Origin: Escherichia coli
Lineage (GTDB): Bacteria; Pseudomonadota; Gammaproteobacteria; Enterobacterales; Enterobacteriaceae
Assembly: GCF_050320075.1 (NCBI RefSeq)
Contig: NZ_CP190018.1
DNA: 64,000 bases
Direction: 5' to 3' (one strand)
Positions 47,871-55,275 of the stretch are shown here, in pieces. The position numbers and the translations under genes were made by a program. The notes beneath the pieces were generated by a model, which saw only the letters and a program-made list of their open reading frames with translations, searched no databases and was not told where the DNA came from. The number at the start of each line of letters is the position of its first letter. Within the stretch, counting starts at the first letter, position 1.

Positions 47871-49010
47871 ATGAGCGCGGGAAGCCCAAAATTCACCGTT
47901 CGCCGCATTGCGGCTTTGTCACTGGTTTCGCTATGGCTGGCAGGCTGTTCTGACACTTCAAATCCACCGGCACCGGTCAGCTCCGTTAATGGCAATGCGC
48001 CTGCAAATACCAATTCTGGTATGTTGATTACGCCGCCGCCGAAAATGGGAACGACGTCTACAGCGCAGCAACCGCAAATTCAGCCGGTACAGCAGCCACA
48101 AATTCAGGCTACTCAACAACCGCAAATCCAGCCAGTACAGCCAGTAGCTCAGCAGCCGGTACAGATGGAAAACGGACGCATCGTCTACAACCGTCAGTAT
48201 GGGAACATTCCGAAAGGCAGTTATAGCGGCAGTACCTATACCGTGAAAAAAGGCGACACACTTTTCTATATCGCCTGGATTACTGGCAACGATTTCCGTG
48301 ACCTTGCTCAGCGCAACAATATTCAGGCACCATACGCGCTGAACGTCGGTCAGACCTTACAGGTGGGTAATGCTTCCGGTACGCCAATCACTGGCGGAAA
48401 TGCCATTACCCAGGCCGATGCAGCAGAGCAAGGAGTTGTGATCAAGCCTGCACAAAATTCCACCGTTGCTGTTGCTTCGCAACCGACAATTACGTATTCT
48501 GAGTCTTCGGGTGAACAGAGTGCTAACAAAATGTTGCCGAACAACAAGCCAACTGCGACCACGGTCACAGCGCCTGTAACGGTACCAACAGCAAGCACAA
48601 CCGAGCCGACTGTCAGCAGTACATCAACCAGTACGCCTATCTCCACCTGGCGCTGGCCGACTGAGGGCAAAGTGATCGAAACCTTTGGCGCTTCTGAGGG
48701 GGGCAACAAGGGGATTGATATCGCGGGCAGCAAAGGACAGGCAATTATCGCGACCGCAGATGGCCGCGTTGTTTATGCCGGTAACGCGCTGCGCGGCTAC
48801 GGTAATCTGATTATCATCAAACATAATGATGATTACCTGAGTGCCTACGCCCATAACGACACAATGCTGGTCCGGGAACAACAAGAAGTGAAGGCGGGGC
48901 AAAAAATAGCAACCATGGGTAGCACCGGAACCAGTTCAACACGCTTGCATTTTGAAATTCGTTACAAGGGGAAATCCGTAAACCCGCTGCGTTATTTGCC
49001 GCAGCGATAA
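47871..49010 (+). CDS. nlpD: murein hydrolase activator lipoprotein NlpD (LysM plus degenerate M23 peptidase domain)
   Basis: 379-aa ORF with lipobox LAGC and Q/P-rich repeats (QQPQIQ); precedes rpoS. Confidence 0.95.
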
Positions 49011-49072
49011 ATCGGCGGAACCAGGCTTTTGCTTGAATGTTCCGTCAAGGGATCACGGGTAGGAGCCACCTT

Positions 49073-50065
49073 ATGAGTCAGAATACGCTGAAAGTTCATG
49101 ATTTAAATGAAGATGCGGAATTTGATGAGAACGGAGTTGAGGTTTTTGACGAAAAGGCCTTAGTAGAAGAGGAACCCAGTGATAACGATTTGGCCGAAGA
49201 GGAACTGTTATCGCAGGGAGCCACACAGCGTGTGTTGGACGCGACTCAGCTTTACCTTGGTGAGATTGGTTATTCACCACTGTTAACGGCCGAAGAAGAA
49301 GTTTATTTTGCGCGTCGCGCACTGCGTGGAGATGTTGCCTCCCGCCGCCGGATGATCGAGAGTAACTTGCGTCTGGTGGTAAAAATTGCCCGCCGTTATG
49401 GCAATCGTGGTCTGGCGTTGCTGGACCTGATCGAAGAGGGCAACCTGGGGCTGATCCGCGCGGTAGAGAAGTTTGACCCGGAACGTGGTTTCCGCTTCTC
49501 AACATACGCAACCTGGTGGATTCGCCAGACGATCGAACGGGCGATTATGAACCAAACCCGTACTATTCGTTTGCCGATTCACATCGTAAAGGAGCTGAAC
49601 GTTTACCTGCGAACCGCACGCGAGTTGTCCCATAAACTGGACCACGAACCAAGTGCGGAAGAGATCGCAGAGCAACTGGATAAGCCAGTTGATGACGTCA
49701 GCCGTATGCTTCGTCTTAACGAGCGCATTACCTCGGTAGACACCCCGCTGGGTGGTGATTCCGAAAAAGCGTTGCTGGACATCCTGGCCGATGAAAAAGA
49801 GAACGGTCCGGAAGATACCACGCAAGATGACGATATGAAGCAGAGCATCGTCAAATGGCTGTTCGAGCTGAACGCCAAACAGCGTGAAGTACTGGCACGT
49901 CGATTCGGTTTGCTGGGGTACGAAGCGGCAACACTGGAAGATGTAGGTCGTGAAATTGGCCTCACCCGTGAACGTGTTCGCCAGATTCAGGTTGAAGGCC
50001 TGCGCCGTTTGCGCGAAATCCTGCAAACGCAGGGGCTGAATATCGAAGCGCTGTTCCGCGAGTAA
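49073..50065 (+). CDS. rpoS: RNA polymerase sigma factor RpoS (sigma-38); start at [13 protein letters not shown]
   Basis: 330 aa; sigma-70 family regions 2 to 4. Confidence 0.97.
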
Positions 50066-50083
50066 GTAAGCATCTGTCAGAAA

Positions 50084-50114
50084 GGCCAGTCTCAAGCGAG
50101 GCTGGCCTTTTTTC
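50084..50114 (+). terminator. rho-independent terminator of rpoS
   Basis: GGCCAGtctcaagcgaggCTGGCC followed by tttttt. Confidence 0.85.
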
Positions 50115-50142
50115 TTTTGTTTGGGAAGCATGTGTTTTTGTG

Positions 50143-50180
50143 GGCTGGATAAGCCGCGATAGCGTCGCATCCGGCAATTT
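50143..50180. repeat. REP-like palindromic element downstream of rpoS
   Basis: ggataagccgcgatagcgtcgcatccggca: REP-type GCCGGATG-like arms. Confidence 0.55.
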
Positions 50181-50185
50181 GCACC

Positions 50186-50593
50186 CTATGTGTTCATCAT
50201 CTTGCGCACCAACTGCATAAACAGCTCCTGCTCTTCTGCACTCAAACGCCCCAAAAATTCCTCATCCACGCTGTCACCAATGGGGATCGCCGCAGCAAGT
50301 ACCTTTTCTCCTTCGGCAGTCAGCCAGACAAAGCGTCGCCGCTTGTCAGCGGCGTCATGTTCACGTCTGACTAAGCCACGATTTTCCATTCTTGCCAACA
50401 TTTCTGCCAGCGTTGCTTTGGTGCTGACTGCTGCTTCTATCAGTGCCACCTGTTCGATACCAGGCTTATCAGCAATGGCGCGCATCACCGCGTACTGTGG
50501 TTTGGTGAGGTCAGGTAACTCGTGCTGCCAGCGAGCCGTGTGCTGCTGAAAAAGCTGTCGTAACTGATGGAACGCTTTATTTCGTAACGCCAT
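50186..50593 (-). CDS. MarR/SlyA-family transcriptional regulator; start at MALRNKAF preceded by ggag
   Basis: winged-helix MarR-like sequence; divergent from the decarboxylase operon; ORF-track start at 50626 lacks a ribosome-binding site. Confidence 0.8.
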   Translation of the reverse strand: MALRNKAFHQLRQLFQQHTARWQHELPDLTKPQYAVMRAIADKPGIEQVALIEAAVSTKATLAEMLARMENRGLVRREHDAADKRRRFVWLTAEGEKVLAAAIPIGDSVDEEFLGRLSAEEQELFMQLVRKMMNT

Positions 50594-50739
50594 GTAAACT
50601 CCGGGCAAACTATCTGCCGCTATCATAGCGGTTTTTCAGTGACGAAGAAGATGTTGTTACTTTTCAGTGCTTGCCGCGATGAAAACAGAGGCGTATTTTA
50701 ATAATAACGTTCGTATACGAACAATTAAGAGAATAAACA

Positions 50740-51333
50740 ATGAGACTGATCGTCGGGATGACAGGGGCCACCGGAGCGCCTCTTGGTGTGGCATTACTGC
50801 AAGCGCTGCGGGAGATGCCGAATGTCGAGACTCATCTGGTGATGTCGAAGTGGGCGAAAACCACCATTGAACTGGAAACGCCTTACAACGCCCGCGATGT
50901 TGCTGCCCTCGCAGACTTCTGCCATAACCCGGCGGATCAGGCCGCAACCATCTCCTCAGGTTCCTTTCGTACCGACGGCATGATCGTTATTCCGTGCAGT
51001 ATGAAAACGCTCGCCGGTATCCGTGCCGGTTACGCCGATGGCCTGGTAGGGCGCGCGGCGGACGTCGTGCTCAAAGAAGGCCGCAAACTAGTGCTGGTGC
51101 CGCGTGAAATGCCGCTTAGCACCATCCATCTCGAAAATATGCTCGCACTTTCACGCATGGGCGTGGCGATGGTGCCGCCGATGCCTGCCTTTTATAACCA
51201 TCCCGAAACGGTAGATGACATTGTCCACCACGTGGTAGCCCGCGTGCTGGATCAATTTGGCCTCGAACATCCTCACGCCAGGCGCTGGCAAGGATTGCCG
51301 CAGGCCCGGAATTTTTCTCAGGAGAATGAATAA
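50740..51333 (+). CDS. UbiX/Pad1-family flavin prenyltransferase (decarboxylase B subunit)
   Basis: 197-aa ORF MRLIVGMTGATGAPLGVALLQAL... typical of UbiX flavoproteins. Confidence 0.88.
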   Translation: MRLIVGMTGATGAPLGVALLQALREMPNVETHLVMSKWAKTTIELETPYNARDVAALADFCHNPADQAATISSGSFRTDGMIVIPCSMKTLAGIRAGYADGLVGRAADVVLKEGRKLVLVPREMPLSTIHLENMLALSRMGVAMVPPMPAFYNHPETVDDIVHHVVARVLDQFGLEHPHARRWQGLPQARNFSQENE

Positions 51334-52760
51334 TGGCATTTGATGATTTACGCAGCTTTTTACAGGCGCTTGATGACCACGGCCAGTTACTGAAAATCAG
51401 CGAAGAGGTGAACGCGGAACCGGATCTGGCAGCCGCTGCCAACGCCACCGGACGTATCGGCGATGTTGCACCGGCGCTGTGGTTTGACAATATTCGCGGC
51501 TTTATCGATGCCCGCGTGGCAATGAACACCATCGGTTCCTGGCAGAACCACGCGATTTCCCTCGGCCTGCCGCCAAACACCCCGGTTAAAAAACAGATTG
51601 ATGAGTTTATCCGCCGCTGGGATAACTTCCCCATTGCCCCGGAGCGCCGCGCCAATCCAGCCTGGGCGCAGAACACCGTCGATGGCGACGAGATCAACCT
51701 GTTCGATATTCTGCCTCTGTTTCGTTTAAACGACGGTGATGGCGGTTTCTATCTCGACAAAGCGTGCGTGGTTTCCCGCGATCCGCTTGATCCGGATAAC
51801 TTCGGCAAGCAGAACGTCGGCATCTACCGTATGGAAGTGAAGGGTAAGCGTAAGCTCGGTCTGCAACCGGTGCCGATGCACGATATCGCCCTGCATCTGC
51901 ATAAAGCGGAAGAACGCGGTGAAGATCTGCCGATTGCCATCACACTCGGTAACGATCCGATCATCACCCTGATGGGGGCCACGCCGCTGAAATATGATCA
52001 GTCCGAGTACGAAATGGCAGGCGCGCTGCGTGAAAGCCCGTACCCGATCGCCACCGCCCCGCTGACTGGTTTTGATGTGCCGTGGGGTTCAGAAGTGATC
52101 CTCGAAGGGGTCATCGAAAGCCGTAAACGCGAAATCGAAGGGCCGTTTGGTGAGTTTACCGGGCACTACTCCGGCGGGCGTAACATGACCGTGGTGCGTA
52201 TCGATAAAGTCTCTTATCGCAGCAAACCCATTTTTGAATCGCTCTATCTCGGGATGCCGTGGACGGAAATCGACTACCTGATGGGGCCAGCCACCTGCGT
52301 GCCGCTGTATCAGCAACTGAAAGCCGAGTTCCCGGAAGTGCAGGCGGTAAATGCCATGTACACCCACGGCCTGCTGGCGATTATCTCCACCAAAAAACGC
52401 TACGGTGGCTTTGCCCGCGCGGTGGGCCTGCGTGCGATGACCACGCCACACGGTCTGGGCTACGTGAAGATGGTGATTATGGTCGATGAAGACGTTGATC
52501 CGTTCAACCTGCCGCAGGTGATGTGGGCGCTCTCTTCGAAAGTGAACCCGGCAGGGGATTTGGTGCAGTTGCCGAATATGTCCGTGCTGGAACTCGACCC
52601 CGGCTCAAGCCCGGCCGGTATCACCGACAAGCTGATTATCGACGCCACCACGCCTGTCGCCCCGGACAACCGTGGTCACTACAGCCAGCCGGTGGTGGAT
52701 TTACCGGAAACCAAAGCCTGGGCTGAAAAACTGACCGCTATGCTGGCCGCACGTAAATAA
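51333..52760 (+). CDS. UbiD-family (prenylated-FMN-dependent) aromatic acid decarboxylase (C subunit)
   Basis: 475-aa ORF, UbiD-like; start overlaps the stop of the UbiX-like gene. Confidence 0.88.
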   Translation: MAFDDLRSFLQALDDHGQLLKISEEVNAEPDLAAAANATGRIGDVAPALWFDNIRGFIDARVAMNTIGSWQNHAISLGLPPNTPVKKQIDEFIRRWDNFPIAPERRANPAWAQNTVDGDEINLFDILPLFRLNDGDGGFYLDKACVVSRDPLDPDNFGKQNVGIYRMEVKGKRKLGLQPVPMHDIALHLHKAEERGEDLPIAITLGNDPIITLMGATPLKYDQSEYEMAGALRESPYPIATAPLTGFDVPWGSEVILEGVIESRKREIEGPFGEFTGHYSGGRNMTVVRIDKVSYRSKPIFESLYLGMPWTEIDYLMGPATCVPLYQQLKAEFPEVQAVNAMYTHGLLAIISTKKRYGGFARAVGLRAMTTPHGLGYVKMVIMVDEDVDPFNLPQVMWALSSKVNPAGDLVQLPNMSVLELDPGSSPAGITDKLIIDATTPVAPDNRGHYSQPVVDLPETKAWAEKLTAMLAARK

Positions 52761-52770
52761 GGAGAACAAG

Positions 52771-53007
52771 ATGATTTGTCCACGTTGTGCTGATGAACAG
52801 ATTGAAGTGATGGCGAAATCGCCGGTAAAAGATGTCTGGACGGTCTACCAGTGCCAGCATTGCCTCTATACCTGGCGCGATACCGAACCGCTACGCCGCA
52901 CCAGCCGCGAACATTATCCCGAAGCGTTCCGCATGACACAGAAAGATATTGATGACGCGCCGATGGTGCCGAGCATCCCGCCGCTGCTGGCGGAAGGTAA
53001 GCGCTAA
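52771..53007 (+). CDS. small Zn-ribbon-type subunit of the hydroxyarylic acid decarboxylase (D subunit)
   Basis: 78-aa ORF with CPRC ... CQHC cysteine pairs, directly downstream of the UbiD-like gene. Confidence 0.75.
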   Translation: MICPRCADEQIEVMAKSPVKDVWTVYQCQHCLYTWRDTEPLRRTSREHYPEAFRMTQKDIDDAPMVPSIPPLLAEGKR

Positions 53008-53010
53008 ATA

Positions 53011-53039
53011 AAAGGTCCGATGCCCATCGGACCTTTTTA
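53011..53039. terminator. bidirectional terminator between the convergent decarboxylase operon and ygbN
   Basis: aaaaGGTCCGATGcccATCGGACCttttt. Confidence 0.8.
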
Positions 53040-53045
53040 TTAAGG

Positions 53046-54410
53046 TCAAATTACCGCCCATACGCACCAGGTAATTAAGAATCCGGTAAAACCGAGAATG
53101 GTCGTTAACACTGTCCAGGTTTTCAGACCGTCTGCTACCGATAACCCCAGATATTTGGTCACAATCCAGAACCCTGAGTCATTAATATGTGACGCGCCAA
53201 GCCCACCAAAGCAGGCTGCCAGCGTCACCAATACGCACTGAATCGGATTCAATCCCATCACCGCTTCTGAGAGTAACCCGCCGGTTGTCAGGATTGCTAC
53301 GGTTGCTGACCCCTGCGATGCACGCAGCGCCAGTGAAATAATAAATGCGGCTGGTAACAGAGGCAGGTCAATCATTTGTAGCATGTTGGCAAGGGCTTTG
53401 CCGACGCCCGATTCCACCAGCACTTTGCCAAATACCCCTCCAGCACCAGTAACCAAAATCACTACCGCCGCGGTGGGAAGGGCTGAGCCCATAATGTCGC
53501 TGGTGTGTTGTAAGCTCCAGCCGCGACGTAAAGCCAATAACCAGAATGCCAGCACCAGCGCAATCATTAGAGCTACCATTGGTGAGCCGATCAGCTGTAG
53601 CGTACCAAGCAGGGGATGCGAAGGCGGCATCAGTGTTGCGGAAACCGTACCCGCCATGATAATCGCGATAGGAATAACAATTAGCGAGGTGACCAGCGCG
53701 ACGCCCGGTGGATTTATTTTATCGCTTAATTTTGTCGCGCCTTCCTCACTGGCCGGAGCCAGTTGCATCTGTTCCAGTACTTCCACCGACATCGCATATT
53801 GGCGCTTATTGATTATTTTCGCTGCAAAGTAGCCAACAATCCCTACGGGAATAGAAATCGCAATACCGATGATGGTTAGCCAGCCGATGTCTGCGTGGAG
53901 TAACCCCGCTGCGGCGACAGGGCCTGGATGCGGCGGTACCGCCACATGAACAGTTAGCATGATTCCAGCGACAGGCAGGCCAAATTTGAGTGGCGATATT
54001 TTGGCAACCTTGGCAAAACCGTAAATGATTGGCGCAAGAATAATAAAGCCGACATCAAAGAAGACGGGAATACCGAGGAAGAACGCTGCCAGAGTCAGCG
54101 CAGCGATAGTTCGTTTGTCACCTAACTTGCGACTGAAATAATTAGCCAGTGACTCTGCACCACCAGAGTGTTCGATCATACGCCCCAGCATAGCGCCCAG
54201 ACCAATAATAATAGTGACGGAACCAAGCACACCGCCCATCCCGGCGATCATCACTTTACCCACTTCGCCCGCCGGTATACCCGCCGCAAGTGCGACTAAC
54301 AGGCTGACGAGGAGCAGAGCAACGAATGGTTGTACCTTTGCCTTGATGACCAGCAGCAACAGCATGATTACGCCAGTTAACGCAATGCATAACAATGTAA
54401 TTGTGGACAT
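53046..54410 (-). CDS. ygbN: GntP-family permease
   Basis: 454-aa hydrophobic ORF, GntP-like. Confidence 0.85.
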   Translation of the reverse strand: MSTITLLCIALTGVIMLLLLVIKAKVQPFVALLLVSLLVALAAGIPAGEVGKVMIAGMGGVLGSVTIIIGLGAMLGRMIEHSGGAESLANYFSRKLGDKRTIAALTLAAFFLGIPVFFDVGFIILAPIIYGFAKVAKISPLKFGLPVAGIMLTVHVAVPPHPGPVAAAGLLHADIGWLTIIGIAISIPVGIVGYFAAKIINKRQYAMSVEVLEQMQLAPASEEGATKLSDKINPPGVALVTSLIVIPIAIIMAGTVSATLMPPSHPLLGTLQLIGSPMVALMIALVLAFWLLALRRGWSLQHTSDIMGSALPTAAVVILVTGAGGVFGKVLVESGVGKALANMLQMIDLPLLPAAFIISLALRASQGSATVAILTTGGLLSEAVMGLNPIQCVLVTLAACFGGLGASHINDSGFWIVTKYLGLSVADGLKTWTVLTTILGFTGFLITWCVWAVI

Positions 54411-54498
54411 GGGAAACCCTGTCTGAAAGTTATAGTTAACCTACCCCATCCGTAGATGGGGGGATGTATGGGTACTTTGTAATTAGGGATTTAACGAA

Positions 54499-55275
54499 TT
54501 AGCGCCAGGCGTCAAACCAGCCAAGCCCTTCTTCGGTGAGGCCACGAGGTTTATATTCACAACCGATCCAGCCCTGATATCCCACCTCATCGAACAGGCG
54601 GAACAGCCACGGATAGTTGATTTCTCCATCGTCCGGTTCATGTCGATCAGGTAGTCCGGCAATTTGTACGTGCGCATATTTCCCGGCGTAGTCGCGGATT
54701 AAATGCGTCAGGTTGCCATCTACTTTTTGCGCATGAAAAGTATCTAGTTGAATAAACACGTTATCTCGTGCAACTTCTTCAACAATAGCCAGTGCCTGAT
54801 ACTGGCTGGAGAAGAGATAATGAGGCTTAACGCCGGGGCTGAGTGCTTCAACTAATATTCGCTTGCCGTGTGGCGCAAAGCGGTCGGCAGCGTAGCGGAG
54901 ATTATCGATAAATACTGCCCTGTACCGTTCAGCATCTTCGCCAGCGGGCACGACGCCTGCCATCACATGGACTTGTTCACAATTGAGCGCCAATGCATAT
55001 TCCAGTGCCAGGTCGATGTCTGCGTGTGCTTCGTGCTCACGTCCGGGAAGGGCGGATAATCCCCATTCCCCCGCATTAATATCTCCGGGAGCGGTATTGA
55101 ACAGCGCCAGTGTCAGATGGTTTTGCTCCAGTTGCTTTTGGATTTGCAGGGTGGAGTAGTCATAGGGAAACAGAAATTCCACAGCATCGAACCCGGCTTT
55201 TCGCGCTGCGGCGAAGCGTTCAATAAAAGGCACTTCGGTGAACATCATGGATAAATTAGCTGCAAAACGAGGCAT
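54499..55275 (-). CDS. ygbM: hydroxypyruvate-isomerase-like TIM-barrel isomerase (2-oxo-tetronate isomerase OtnI-type)
   Basis: 258-aa ORF; xylose-isomerase-like TIM barrel; operon context. Confidence 0.8.

Follow-up and report, generated by a model that had tools for sequence, protein, structure and literature searches.

The interval between rpoS and ygbN in the Escherichia coli DNA analyzed here (contig NZ_CP190018.1; 64,000 nt in all, hereafter the window) is, with high confidence, the hosA–hadBCD locus of this species, a substrate-induced module for the detoxification and catabolism of phenolic acids. The association of hosA with a three-gene 4-hydroxybenzoate/vanillate decarboxylase operon has already been published and is well described, and its genes also appear under the names slyA-like/pad1/yclC, kpdR–kpdBCD and vdcBCD-type. 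Within E. coli the block is accessory and, most likely, an ancestral one that was lost in K-12-like lineages.

Content and Boundaries of the rpoS–ygbN Interval

The interval corresponds exactly to positions 50066–53045 of the window, between the TAA stop codon of rpoS (50063–50065) and the TGA stop codon of ygbN, which is read on the minus strand (53046–53048). All of the features that the original prediction described in this segment are present (Table 1). On the left, both of the proposed bounds, the rpoS terminator and a REP-like element, were seen: the first folds with –28.1 kcal/mol (z = –5.9), and the second is the sole match in the window to a REP consensus pattern, with a chance expectation of zero. 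A weak Rfam match to naRNA4 (RF02564; 50143–50209, minus strand) is sub-threshold, scoring 29 bits where the gathering cut-off is 59.5. The terminator is common to K-12 up to 50111, positions 50066–50111 being identical to the K-12-like locus. On the right, the hairpin at 53010–53038, preceded by an A-run and followed by a T-run, folds well on the plus (–18.7 kcal/mol, z = –4.7) and the minus strand (–17.3 kcal/mol, z = –3.5), in agreement with the bidirectional terminator that had been proposed. However, the K-12-like locus has exactly the same sequence here, so the terminator is part of the shared backbone and lies outside the variable block. Between these shared sequences K-12 has only 9 nt, CTGTGCACA, replacing positions 50112–53007, and the rpoS–ygbN spacer of MG1655 is 93 bp, so that the absence of the block from K-12, one of the two points on which the original prediction could have failed, is confirmed.

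Table 1. Features of the rpoS–ygbN interval and its context genes (window coordinates; strand empty where none applies).
Feature	Position	Strand	Evidence
rpoS CDS, left-hand context gene	49073..50065	+	ORF; product 100% identical to RefSeq RpoS WP_000081550.1 in identical strain
rpoS intrinsic terminator, 15-bp stem then T-run	50079..50122 (hairpin 50079–50112)	+	Terminator scan and folding
Segment variable with respect to K-12, 2,896 bp, the classic "2.9-kb" rpoS-proximal segment	50112..53007		Junction alignments; MG1655 annotation; LeClerc 1999 as cited in PMC4209514
REP-type palindromic element, just 3' of hosA stop codon	50147..50175	–	REP consensus pattern
hosA, MarR-family repressor sensing 4-hydroxybenzoate, 135 aa	50186..50593	–	PDB 8AGA match; RefSeq 408-nt CDS
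Predicted hosA –10 box TATGAT, inside palindrome CCGCTATcATAGCGG at 50617–50631	50622..50627	–	Conservation
Predicted BCD promoter: –35 TTGCCG 50671–50676, 17-nt spacer, –10 TATTTT 50694–50699	50671..50699	+	Phylogenetic footprinting
HosA operator, perfect 14-bp palindrome GTTCGTATACGAAC	50709..50722		Published probe match and conservation
Subunit B, UbiX-type flavin prenyltransferase (prFMN synthase), 197 aa	50740..51333	+	NCBIfam VdcB; UbiX TIGR00421; PDB 1SBZ
Subunit C, UbiD-type prFMN-dependent hydroxyarylic acid decarboxylase, 475 aa	51333..52760	+	NCBIfam VdcC; PDB 7AE4_A
Subunit D, zinc-ribbon activator subunit, 78 aa	52771..53007	+	NCBIfam VdcD; ShdD of 7AE4
Bidirectional terminator for D and ygbN	53010..53038		Folding on both strands; K-12 comparison
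ygbN, GntP-family transporter, right-hand context gene	53046..54410	–	ORF and RefSeq annotation

The HosA Regulator, Its Operator and the Predicted Promoters

The divergent MarR-type regulator is hosA. PDB entry 8AGA ("Transcriptional regulator HosA") is matched with E = 1e-84, residues 11–145 of the long ORF corresponding to residues 1–135 of the chain, while among the NCBIfam models no equivalog was above its cut-off for hosA and MarR-family matches fell only below equivalog cut-offs. The 146-aa ORF originally proposed, starting from the ATG at 50626, is probably an over-extension. The start is most likely at 50593, since the RefSeq annotation of a 100%-identical strain, in which the CDS is 408 nt, and the crystallised HosA agree on it; GGAG sits 5 nt 5' of this ATG, and the upstream ATG falls within the conserved TATGAT –10 box.

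The positions of the two promoters are predicted from conservation. In the intergenic alignment, the ATCATA of the putative hosA –10 box is conserved across Enterobacteriaceae genera; for the candidate BCD promoter, 21 taxa show no variation in the TTG of the –35 element and almost none in the TA of the –10 element. A consensus promoter scan of the region reported no sigma-70 site, because the match of the BCD promoter to the consensus is just 8/12. The HosA operator lies between the predicted BCD –10 element and the B start codon, and the sequence on either side of it agrees with the published HosA binding probe (PMC6261655 supplement), the machine-read text of which has one extra T in the bold site and one A fewer in the flank. 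Within this region TTCGTnnACGAAC is kept in 21/21 taxa, from E. coli to Vibrio.

The Decarboxylase Subunits

The grouping of the enzyme proteins with the UbiX/UbiD families was a test set beforehand, and all three proteins lie above the curated NCBIfam cut-offs with full-length matches: B scores 312.9 for VdcB (cut-off 290) and 248.5 for UbiX TIGR00421 (cut-off 108.9), C scores 788.3 for VdcC (cut-off 650) and D scores 121.2 for the VdcD equivalog (cut-off 30). They group with subunits of non-oxidative hydroxyarylic acid decarboxylases, the organisation that had been proposed. In comparisons with known structures, B matches Pad1 of O157:H7 (PDB 1SBZ; E = 4e-128, residues 1–197), C matches ShVdcC (PDB 7AE4_A; E = 3e-159, residues 3–471) and D matches the ShdD zinc-ribbon chain of 7AE4 (E = 3e-11). 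In C the motifs N161–R166, H183, EYE 225–227 and E269/E274 (EGPFGEF) are present, and E269 and E274 align with E273 and E278 of ShVdcC, the latter being the catalytic Glu of that enzyme (PMC8379154). C3, C6, C28 and C31 of D correspond to the four Zn ligands of ShVdcD (PMC8379154), and R36 and E39 are also present. The three genes had been described as overlapping, which is the case for B and C (1 nt, in TAATG at 51331–51335) but not for C and D, separated by a 10-nt gap that holds an AAGGAG ribosome-binding site. The composition check over the block revealed a deviation that is only mild, with GC3 of 0.61–0.67 in B, C and D against 0.49–0.56 in the flanking genes.

Position 45 of subunit C is G in 82/82 homologues and V only in the window allele, a substitution that could impair the enzyme. 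An operon intact in sequence and yet functionally impaired through G45V would fit with the minority status of this allele, only 135 of 2,417 carrier genomes matching the block at ≥99%. We consider this very unlikely: the position is not universally constrained, since Asn aligns with it in ShVdcC, an enzyme of known structure, the catalytic and metal-binding motifs of C are all intact, and the allele is found with intact open reading frames in at least 135 genomes.

Distribution and Evolutionary Origin

Among 5,426 complete E. coli genomes, 2,380 (~44%) carry the block, a carrier being defined by the presence of ≥80% of it, and it is located in every case on the chromosome and never on a plasmid. 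That the rpoS–mutS region is a polymorphic hotspot, as stated in the original prediction, is documented (PMC4209514, PMC3074542). The alleles of the block within E. coli differ by 3–5%, those of the flanks by 1% or less, and polymorphism climbs sharply at the 3' end of rpoS. Some database matches in E. coli, Salmonella and Klebsiella are labelled "plasmid" or "phage"; these are chromosome-sized or large records (0.57–5.4 Mb) and look mis-filed.

The block had been called strain-variable cargo. The variability is borne out by these counts, but the evidence on its origin favours an ancestral block followed by loss over acquisition. In fact, the order nlpD–rpoS–hosA–BCD–mutS is found in most of the Enterobacteriaceae genera sampled, and hosA–BCD is immediately flanked by rpoS and mutS in Citrobacter, Klebsiella, Enterobacter, Kluyvera, Kosakonia, Atlantibacter, Franconibacter and others; in Salmonella and Phytobacter, hosA–BCD has the opposite orientation relative to nlpD–rpoS, which sit on the other side. 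The block has diverged from those genera about as much as the flanking genes have, the identity to Citrobacter/Salmonella being 86–87% for C, 80–83% for nlpD, 83–84% for surE–pcm and 91–92% for rpoS. At the borders of the block no integrase, transposase/IS element, tRNA, other mobility gene or flanking direct repeats were found. An ancestral resident is the better reading because of the conserved order across genera and this lack of flanking mobility genes. From these comparisons we infer the direction of change: the block would be the ancestral occupant of the rpoS–mutS interval in Enterobacteriaceae, and the presence/absence polymorphism of E. coli would reflect deletion in K-12-like strains and replacement by a 2.1-kb segment in group B2.

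Insertion of horizontally acquired cargo into a K-12-like rpoS–ygbN junction appears, instead, distinctly unlikely. It would agree with the clean presence/absence pattern and the sharp junctions, the raised GC3 of the block, the rise in polymorphism at the end of rpoS and the apparent exchange of the C gene between Escherichia and Pseudocitrobacter (94% identical to E. coli in C, only 82% in B); furthermore, the title of LeClerc 1999, cited in PMC4209514, speaks of a "Promiscuous origin of a chimeric sequence," and a 2024 bioRxiv preprint makes the related claim that hosA reached EPEC from Shigella. Against it stand the shared location beside rpoS and directly upstream of mutS, the divergence that tracks the flanks, the bare borders and the confinement to the chromosome in E. 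coli. Weakly, the 9 nt of the K-12 junction also resemble the last 9 nt of the block before the terminator (GTGCACAAT vs. GCGCTAAAT, 6/9), a likeness that a deletion scar would predict. Ancestral residence is thus the preferred reading, but a purely vertical history plus loss is too simple, since the raised GC3, the 3–5% allele divergence and the C/B mismatch of Pseudocitrobacter show recombination or horizontal exchange.

Proposed Mechanism and Substrate

According to the mechanism that we propose, a HosA dimer would occupy GTTCGTATACGAAC, just 3' of the predicted BCD promoter and ~17 bp 5' of the B start codon, so that bound HosA would block BCD transcription. Binding of 4-hydroxybenzoate (4-HBA) would release HosA from the DNA, de-repressing the operon and allowing the synthesis of the three proteins. 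B would then prenylate reduced FMN to prFMN, with which C, by means of a divalent metal and the conserved Arg/Glu/Glu catalytic triad, would remove CO2 non-oxidatively, converting 4-hydroxybenzoate to phenol and related acids likewise, e.g., vanillate to guaiacol, while the four-cysteine zinc ribbon of D would bind C and be needed for its activity. Both the response to 4-HBA and the enzyme chemistry come from published work on near-identical or orthologous proteins, and the substrate range is extrapolated from the Klebsiella, Enterobacter, Bacillus and Sedimentibacter enzymes.

The genes might be as described and the physiological substrate another one, such as vanillate, protocatechuate, gallate or a different hydroxy-aromatic acid, or the enzyme might mainly carboxylate phenol to 4-HBA under the anoxic, high-CO2 conditions of the gut. 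Several hydroxybenzoates are substrates of VdcCD-type enzymes, and reversibility has been described for the family (PMC8379154; for reversibility also the title of Lupa 2005, cited in PMC6424909); the accessible papers gave no substrate data for the enzyme of E. coli. Nevertheless, we regard these possibilities as unlikely. HosA specifically senses 4-HBA, with a KD of 4.74 μM and reported binding and release (PMC6261655), and repression by HosA and induction of the operon by 4-HBA are reported in bioRxiv 10.1101/2024.04.24.590444, which cites Roy & Ranjan 2016. Moreover, Klebsiella KpdBCD and the Enterobacter cloacae enzyme are tested 4-hydroxybenzoate decarboxylases (PMC6424909, PMC5779730), these orthologues yield phenol (PMC6424909), and C is 96–97% identical to representatives of these genera, its similarity to the protocatechuate decarboxylase AroY being much weaker (E about 1e-25 to 1e-28).

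Comparison With Known Systems

HosA of E. coli UMN026 and of EPEC E2348/69 (PDB 8AGA and six further entries) is near-identical to the window protein over all 135 residues, with no material difference. The "2.9-kb" segment of O157:H7 and EPEC ("pattern IV"/"pattern I" of o454–nlpD; LeClerc 1999 and Herbelin 2000, as cited in PMC4209514) likewise follows the rpoS terminator directly, and its four genes are those of the window, arranged and oriented in the same way. At the nucleotide level the window block shares 95–97% identity with the O157:H7 and O104:H4 alleles, and its flanks 99–100%. The gene ygbN (o454) adjoins D in E2348/69 and "pattern IV" as it does in the window, whereas O157:H7 is without ygbN through ygbI and D abuts pphB–mutS. 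The 2.1-kb rpoS–ygbN segment of B2 strains (CFT073 "pattern III"; Culham & Wood 2000, as cited in PMC4209514) occupies the same slot and, like the window, retains the rpoS terminator together with a homologous REP element, but in place of hosA–BCD it has genes for a flavodoxin-family protein and an MBL-fold hydrolase.

In Klebsiella and Enterobacter, the representatives have orthologous B–C–D operons in the same neighbourhood next to rpoS, in another host genus; besides the C identity given above, B is 87–88% and D 86–91% identical, and the regulator is more diverged from the window HosA (72–79%). The enzymes of these two genera have been assayed. More distant orthologues are the Firmicutes enzymes VdcCD of Sedimentibacter hydroxybenzoicus and BsdBCD/VdcBCD of Bacillus subtilis (PDB 7AE4, 7AE5, 7AE7; PMC8379154), which have the same architecture, a UbiD-like C that is active only with its Zn-ribbon D; their catalytic Glu/Arg/Glu residues and four Zn cysteines have aligned counterparts in the window proteins, but the salt-bridge residue R12 of ShVdcD is E12 in the window D.

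Finally, UbiX and UbiD of ubiquinone biosynthesis share folds and prFMN chemistry with B and C. B is above the UbiX subfamily cut-off and C above that of the general UbiD family, but C reaches just 172 bits where the true UbiD equivalog (4-hydroxy-3-polyprenylbenzoate decarboxylase) has a cut-off of 788, and it would need the D subunit, which UbiD does not have. The hosA–BCD enzymes are a system paralogous to UbiX/UbiD, acting on soluble phenolic acids.

Gene Layout and Borders of the Interval

The interval 50066-53045 runs exactly from the stop codon of rpoS (TAA) to the minus-strand stop codon of ygbN and holds four genes: hosA, for a MarR-family regulator, and the genes B, C and D, for a UbiX-type flavin prenyltransferase, a UbiD-type decarboxylase and a zinc-ribbon subunit, collectively termed here the block. 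Over its whole length this interval is 100% identical to that of E. coli CFSAN061763, in which the RefSeq annotation gives exactly these four genes. The original prediction of overlapping decarboxylase genes holds for B and C, which share 1 nt (TAATG), and does not for C and D, which are separated by 10 nt carrying an AAGGAG ribosome-binding site. Gene spacing and the single terminator found after D are consistent with one operon in the order B-C-D.

Coordinates of the genes, borders and regulatory elements in the window
Feature	Coordinates	Strand	Description
rpoS stop codon	50063-50065		TAA
rpoS terminator	50079-50112		15-bp stem, then T-run
Segment differing from K-12	50112-53007		2,896 bp
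REP-type element	50147-50175	minus	consensus match
hosA	50186-50593	minus	HosA, MarR-family regulator, 135 aa
Palindrome at hosA promoter	50617-50631		overlaps predicted hosA -10 box
Predicted hosA -10 box	50622-50627	minus	TATGAT
Degenerate second operator-like stretch	50650-50667		aligned to intact sites of other genera
Predicted BCD -35 element	50671-50673		TTG, invariant
Predicted BCD -10 element	50694-50695		TA, nearly invariant
HosA operator palindrome	50709-50722		17 bp before B start codon
B	50740-51333	plus	UbiX-type, 197 aa
C	51333-52760	plus	UbiD-type, 475 aa
Codon 45 of C	51465-51467		Val in this allele
D	52771-53007	plus	zinc ribbon, 78 aa
Bidirectional terminator hairpin	53010-53038		A-run before, T-run after
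ygbN stop codon	53046-53048	minus	

On the left side, both the rpoS terminator and the REP-like element that had been read from the sequence were recovered. The former has a fold energy of -28.1 kcal/mol (z = -5.9); the latter is the sole match to a REP consensus pattern in 64 kb, where none is expected by chance. On the right side, the hairpin folds well on both strands, so that "bidirectional terminator" is a fair description; however, it is also present in K-12 and therefore belongs to the backbone, outside the variable block. The K-12 counterpart of the variable segment is only 9 nt long. The Rfam search of 48800-54600 returned just two matches, both sub-threshold, namely a ctRNA model on top of the rpoS terminator and a weak match to the REP-derived naRNA4 at the REP position, and no RNA gene is proposed. 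Terminator-like matches inside hosA and at the operator palindrome were dismissed as chance or non-terminator.

Distribution and Locus States in E. coli

At least 80% of the block is present in 2,380 of the 5,426 complete E. coli genomes, always on the chromosome, and fragments of it occur in 37 further genomes. In K-12 MG1655 the block is absent and the spacer between ygbN and rpoS measures 93 bp. The same slot is occupied in a group B2-type genome (AR_0055, locus L003, 9055-11132) by a different segment of about 2.1 kb with genes for a flavodoxin-family protein and an MBL-fold hydrolase; this segment keeps a REP element that is a homologue of the one following hosA. In O157:H7 the block is present and the genes from ygbN through ygbI are absent. 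These states are the patterns I to IV of the o454-nlpD region, as described in PMC4209514 (citing LeClerc 1999, Herbelin 2000, Culham and Wood 2000) and PMC3074542, and the window is pattern IV. A further, IS-mediated state is represented by E. coli 06_3044 (L087, 4501-6545), in which hosA is truncated by an IS91-family transposase, BCD, ygbN, ygbM and otnC are absent and the annotated otnK is shorter than in other strains. The carrier counts and the published patterns bear out the view of the rpoS-mutS region as a strain-variable hotspot.

Ancestral Content or Acquired Cargo

Variability within E. coli is one half of what the original prediction had called strain-variable cargo; the other half, acquisition, is less well accommodated by the comparison with other genera, for which one genome per species was scanned and the neighbours of each match were typed. 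The order nlpD-rpoS-hosA-B-C-D-mutS is found in most of the Enterobacteriaceae genera sampled, including Citrobacter, Pseudocitrobacter, Klebsiella, Enterobacter, Kluyvera, Leclercia, Lelliottia, Kosakonia, Atlantibacter, Franconibacter and Mangrovibacter. In Salmonella and Phytobacter the block is inverted with respect to nlpD-rpoS, and these two genes are located on its other side. Outside the Enterobacteriaceae (Pantoea, Erwinia, Rahnella, Vibrio) the block exists and does not adjoin rpoS. In no other genus sampled did ygbN turn up within 7 kb of the block. Absence from the syntenic site in related genera, by which a genomic island is recognized, is not what was observed here.

Compared with Citrobacter and Salmonella, the block (C 86–87%, B 77–82%, hosA 74–76%) and its flanks (rpoS 91–92%, nlpD 80–83%, surE-pcm 83–84%) show similar levels of nucleotide identity. 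No integrase, transposase or tRNA/att site was detected, by ORFs and annotation, between rpoS and ygbN or adjoining them, and no direct repeats were seen at the block junctions. The base composition of B, C and D is mildly shifted, with a GC of 0.55–0.58 and a GC3 of 0.61–0.67 versus 0.51–0.55 and 0.49–0.56 in the flanks, and that of hosA does not deviate from them. A search of plasmid and phage collections for a mobile carrier found the block on real plasmids only in Pantoea, on replicons of 0.2–0.8 Mb. The remaining matches, six plasmid records (H66–H71) and a single phage record (H76) from E. coli, Salmonella and Klebsiella, 0.57–5.4 Mb in size, are false and look like mis-filed chromosomes or chromosome fragments.

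The simplest account takes hosA-BCD as the ancestral content of the rpoS-mutS interval, since lost from K-12-like strains; on the Escherichia side, the ygb/otn genes and pphB would have been added afterwards. Herbelin reportedly spoke of "gene conservation and loss," and Kotewicz's review is likewise said to agree with ancestral presence followed by loss. This introduces a modest correction to the common wording of an "insertion" or of a "horizontally acquired" segment: across the Enterobacteriaceae the block is most likely an ancestral resident of this site, and K-12 has lost it. The observation behind the original prediction is confirmed and its interpretation is supported, both checks that could have refuted it (the block in K-12, proteins outside the UbiX/UbiD families) having left it standing, with the emphasis moved in this one respect from cargo to ancestral content.

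Two observations concern other genomes. In several Enterobacterales outside the Enterobacteriaceae (Chimaeribacter, Rouxiella, Erwinia and some Rahnella; loci L062, L065, L073, L076, L077, L082, L083 and others) a homologue of hosA is followed immediately by C, without an intervening B, so the prFMN synthase must be encoded elsewhere in these genomes. On a 6-kb contig of a Citrobacter sp. MAG (L004, DXKH01000072.1), C is 100% and HosA and B are 99% identical to those of the window; its MutS shares 99% identity with that of E. coli O157:H7 and a second, Citrobacter-like copy is present in the MAG (L009). The contig probably comes from E. coli and reached the MAG by mis-binning.

Allele Depth and Signs of Recombination

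The E. coli alleles of the block are unusually deep. Comparison of the window with other E. coli (49950-53007 versus loci L084, L085 and L086) gives 0–5 differences per 200 bp as far as the 3′ end of rpoS and mostly 5–18 (range 0–18) per 200 bp inside the block, in all strain pairs. The alleles of C are 46–68 nt apart and, in the comparison of the window with O104:H4, 61 of the 68 differences fall at third codon positions. The window allele is matched at 99% or more by only 135 of the 2,417 carrier genomes. This allele has a valine at codon 45 of C, where all 82 other homologues, from E. coli to Vibrio, have glycine, and where the crystallised subunit of Sedimentibacter hydroxybenzoicus (ShVdcC) has an aligned asparagine.

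In Pseudocitrobacter vendiensis (L007, 6408-8428) C is about 94% identical to that of E. coli at the nucleotide level, compared with about 82% for B and about 89% for rpoS, which suggests an exchange of the C gene between Escherichia and Pseudocitrobacter. The polymorphism of the block, the divergent C alleles, the Pseudocitrobacter C gene and the raised GC3 indicate that its history was not purely vertical, and this fits the known reputation of the region. A broader reading, which we consider rather improbable as a whole, is that the block is no island but ancestral rpoS-mutS content carrying an old, lineage-crossing polymorphism in E. coli, with occasional exchange of C between genera, in which presence/absence and allele classes differing by 3–5% would be kept side by side while the flanks differ by no more than 1%. 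If this were true, it would point to balancing or niche-dependent selection on the detoxification of phenolic acids, or to recombination driven by mutS/rpoS, and the G45V allele would be a functionally distinct variant.

HosA, Its Operator and the Predicted Promoters

The regulator corresponds to HosA over all of its 135 residues (PDB 8AGA, "Transcriptional regulator HosA"; E = 1e-84, 284 bits), with six further HosA entries among its PDB matches. SlyA was rejected as an alternative assignment, its NCBIfam model giving 29.5 bits against a cut-off of 120. The start of hosA is most likely at 50593 and not at 50626: the crystallised HosA and the RefSeq CDS both have a length of 135 aa, and the ATG at 50593 is preceded by GGAG at a distance of 5 nt. 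The ATG at 50626 sits within the conserved TATGAT of the predicted -10 box.

Between hosA and the operon lies a perfect palindrome, GTTCGTATACGAAC. The sequence around it matches the published HosA binding probe (PMC6261655 supplement), in which, as machine-read, the bold site has one T more and the flank one A fewer than the window; the operator sequence is not contained in the Cas12a biosensor paper. An alignment of the hosA-B intergenic regions of 21 taxa shows TTCGTnnACGAAC to be conserved across a range that extends from E. coli to Rahnella, Pantoea and Vibrio, together with an invariant TTG (-35), a nearly invariant TA (-10) and ATCATA, which reads TATGAT on the hosA strand. A sigma-70 consensus scan of 49900-53200 found no promoter, and the predicted position of the BCD promoter is drawn from this conservation instead. 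The operator would then span about +2 to +16 relative to the predicted start of BCD transcription, in agreement with the published site downstream of the transcription start.

According to bioRxiv 10.1101/2024.04.24.590444, citing Roy and Ranjan 2016, that site lies downstream of the transcription start, HosA represses itself and the decarboxylase operon, and the operon is induced by 4-hydroxybenzoate (4-HBA). For the HosA of UMN026, release from this site by 4-HBA is reported, with a KD of 4.74 μM (PMC6261655).

In many genera (loci L007, L017, L019, L024) another operator-like sequence, CGTATACGAAC, precedes the main operator by about 55 bp and is nearer to the hosA promoter. The E. coli stretch aligned to it is degenerate (GATGTTGTTAC), which may have a bearing on the self-repression of hosA in this species. 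A further palindrome, CCGCTATcATAGCGG, overlaps the predicted hosA -10 box and is unlike the HosA operator in sequence.

Decarboxylase Subunits and Predicted Pathway

The assignment of B, C and D to a hydroxyarylic acid decarboxylase with UbiX, UbiD and Zn-ribbon subunits was upheld, as all three proteins exceed the cut-offs of the VdcB, VdcC and VdcD models and the first two group with the UbiX and UbiD families. B scores 312.9 bits over its full length with VdcB (NF041206, cut-off 290) and 248.5 with UbiX (TIGR00421, cut-off 108.9), and its residues 1–197 match PDB 1SBZ (E = 4e-128), which we take to be Pad1 of E. coli O157:H7. C scores 788.3 bits with VdcC (NF041204, cut-off 650; profile positions 2–466 of 467) and matches the Sedimentibacter VdcC chain of PDB 7AE4 over residues 3–471 (E = 3e-159). 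N161, R166, H183, EYE 225–227 and the EGPFGEF motif (E269, E274) are all present, and E269 and E274 occupy the aligned positions of E273 and E278 in ShVdcC, so that the metal/prFMN-binding residues and the Arg-Glu-Glu catalytic motif are retained; E278 is the catalytic glutamate of ShVdcC (PMC8379154). D reaches 121.2 bits with the VdcD equivalog (NF041205, cut-off 30) and aligns with the ShdD chain of 7AE4; it has two CxxC knuckles, whose four cysteines (C3, C6, C28 and C31) align with the zinc ligands of ShVdcD (PMC8379154), as well as R36 and E39.

Two other assignments were considered. C as the true UbiD, the 4-hydroxy-3-polyprenylbenzoate decarboxylase, scores 172.3 bits with NF008175 against a cut-off of 788; falling so far below the equivalog cut-off, it is a paralogue of the ubiquinone enzyme and not UbiD itself, and a true UbiD/UbiX ubiquinone pair is ruled out on this score. 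An AroY-type protocatechuate decarboxylase was rejected for its much weaker similarity.

Published work already covers the locus, the regulator with its operator and inducer, the enzyme family, a number of crystal structures and the polymorphism among strains, and as a discovery the finding carries little weight. Its use is in annotation: the genome has the "pattern IV" rpoS-ygbN configuration and is predicted to convert 4-hydroxybenzoate to phenol, a trait absent from K-12 and relevant to phenol production in the gut. 4-Hydroxybenzoate derives from parabens, plant phenolics and tyrosine metabolism.

In the proposed mechanism, HosA bound to the operator would block the B-C-D promoter and 4-HBA would release it, as in published work on a near-identical HosA. 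B would provide prFMN. This synthesis step rests on established knowledge of UbiX-type enzymes. C, carrying prFMN and kept active by the zinc-ribbon subunit D, would remove CO2 from 4-hydroxybenzoate and related acids, by analogy with VdcCD (PMC8379154) and with the decarboxylases of Klebsiella and Enterobacter (PMC6424909, PMC5779730). From the same likeness we infer that the enzyme of the window may decarboxylate 4-hydroxybenzoate, vanillate or related acids: the enzymes of both genera are 4-hydroxybenzoate decarboxylases, and the C subunits of the genus representatives are 96–97% identical to that of the window.
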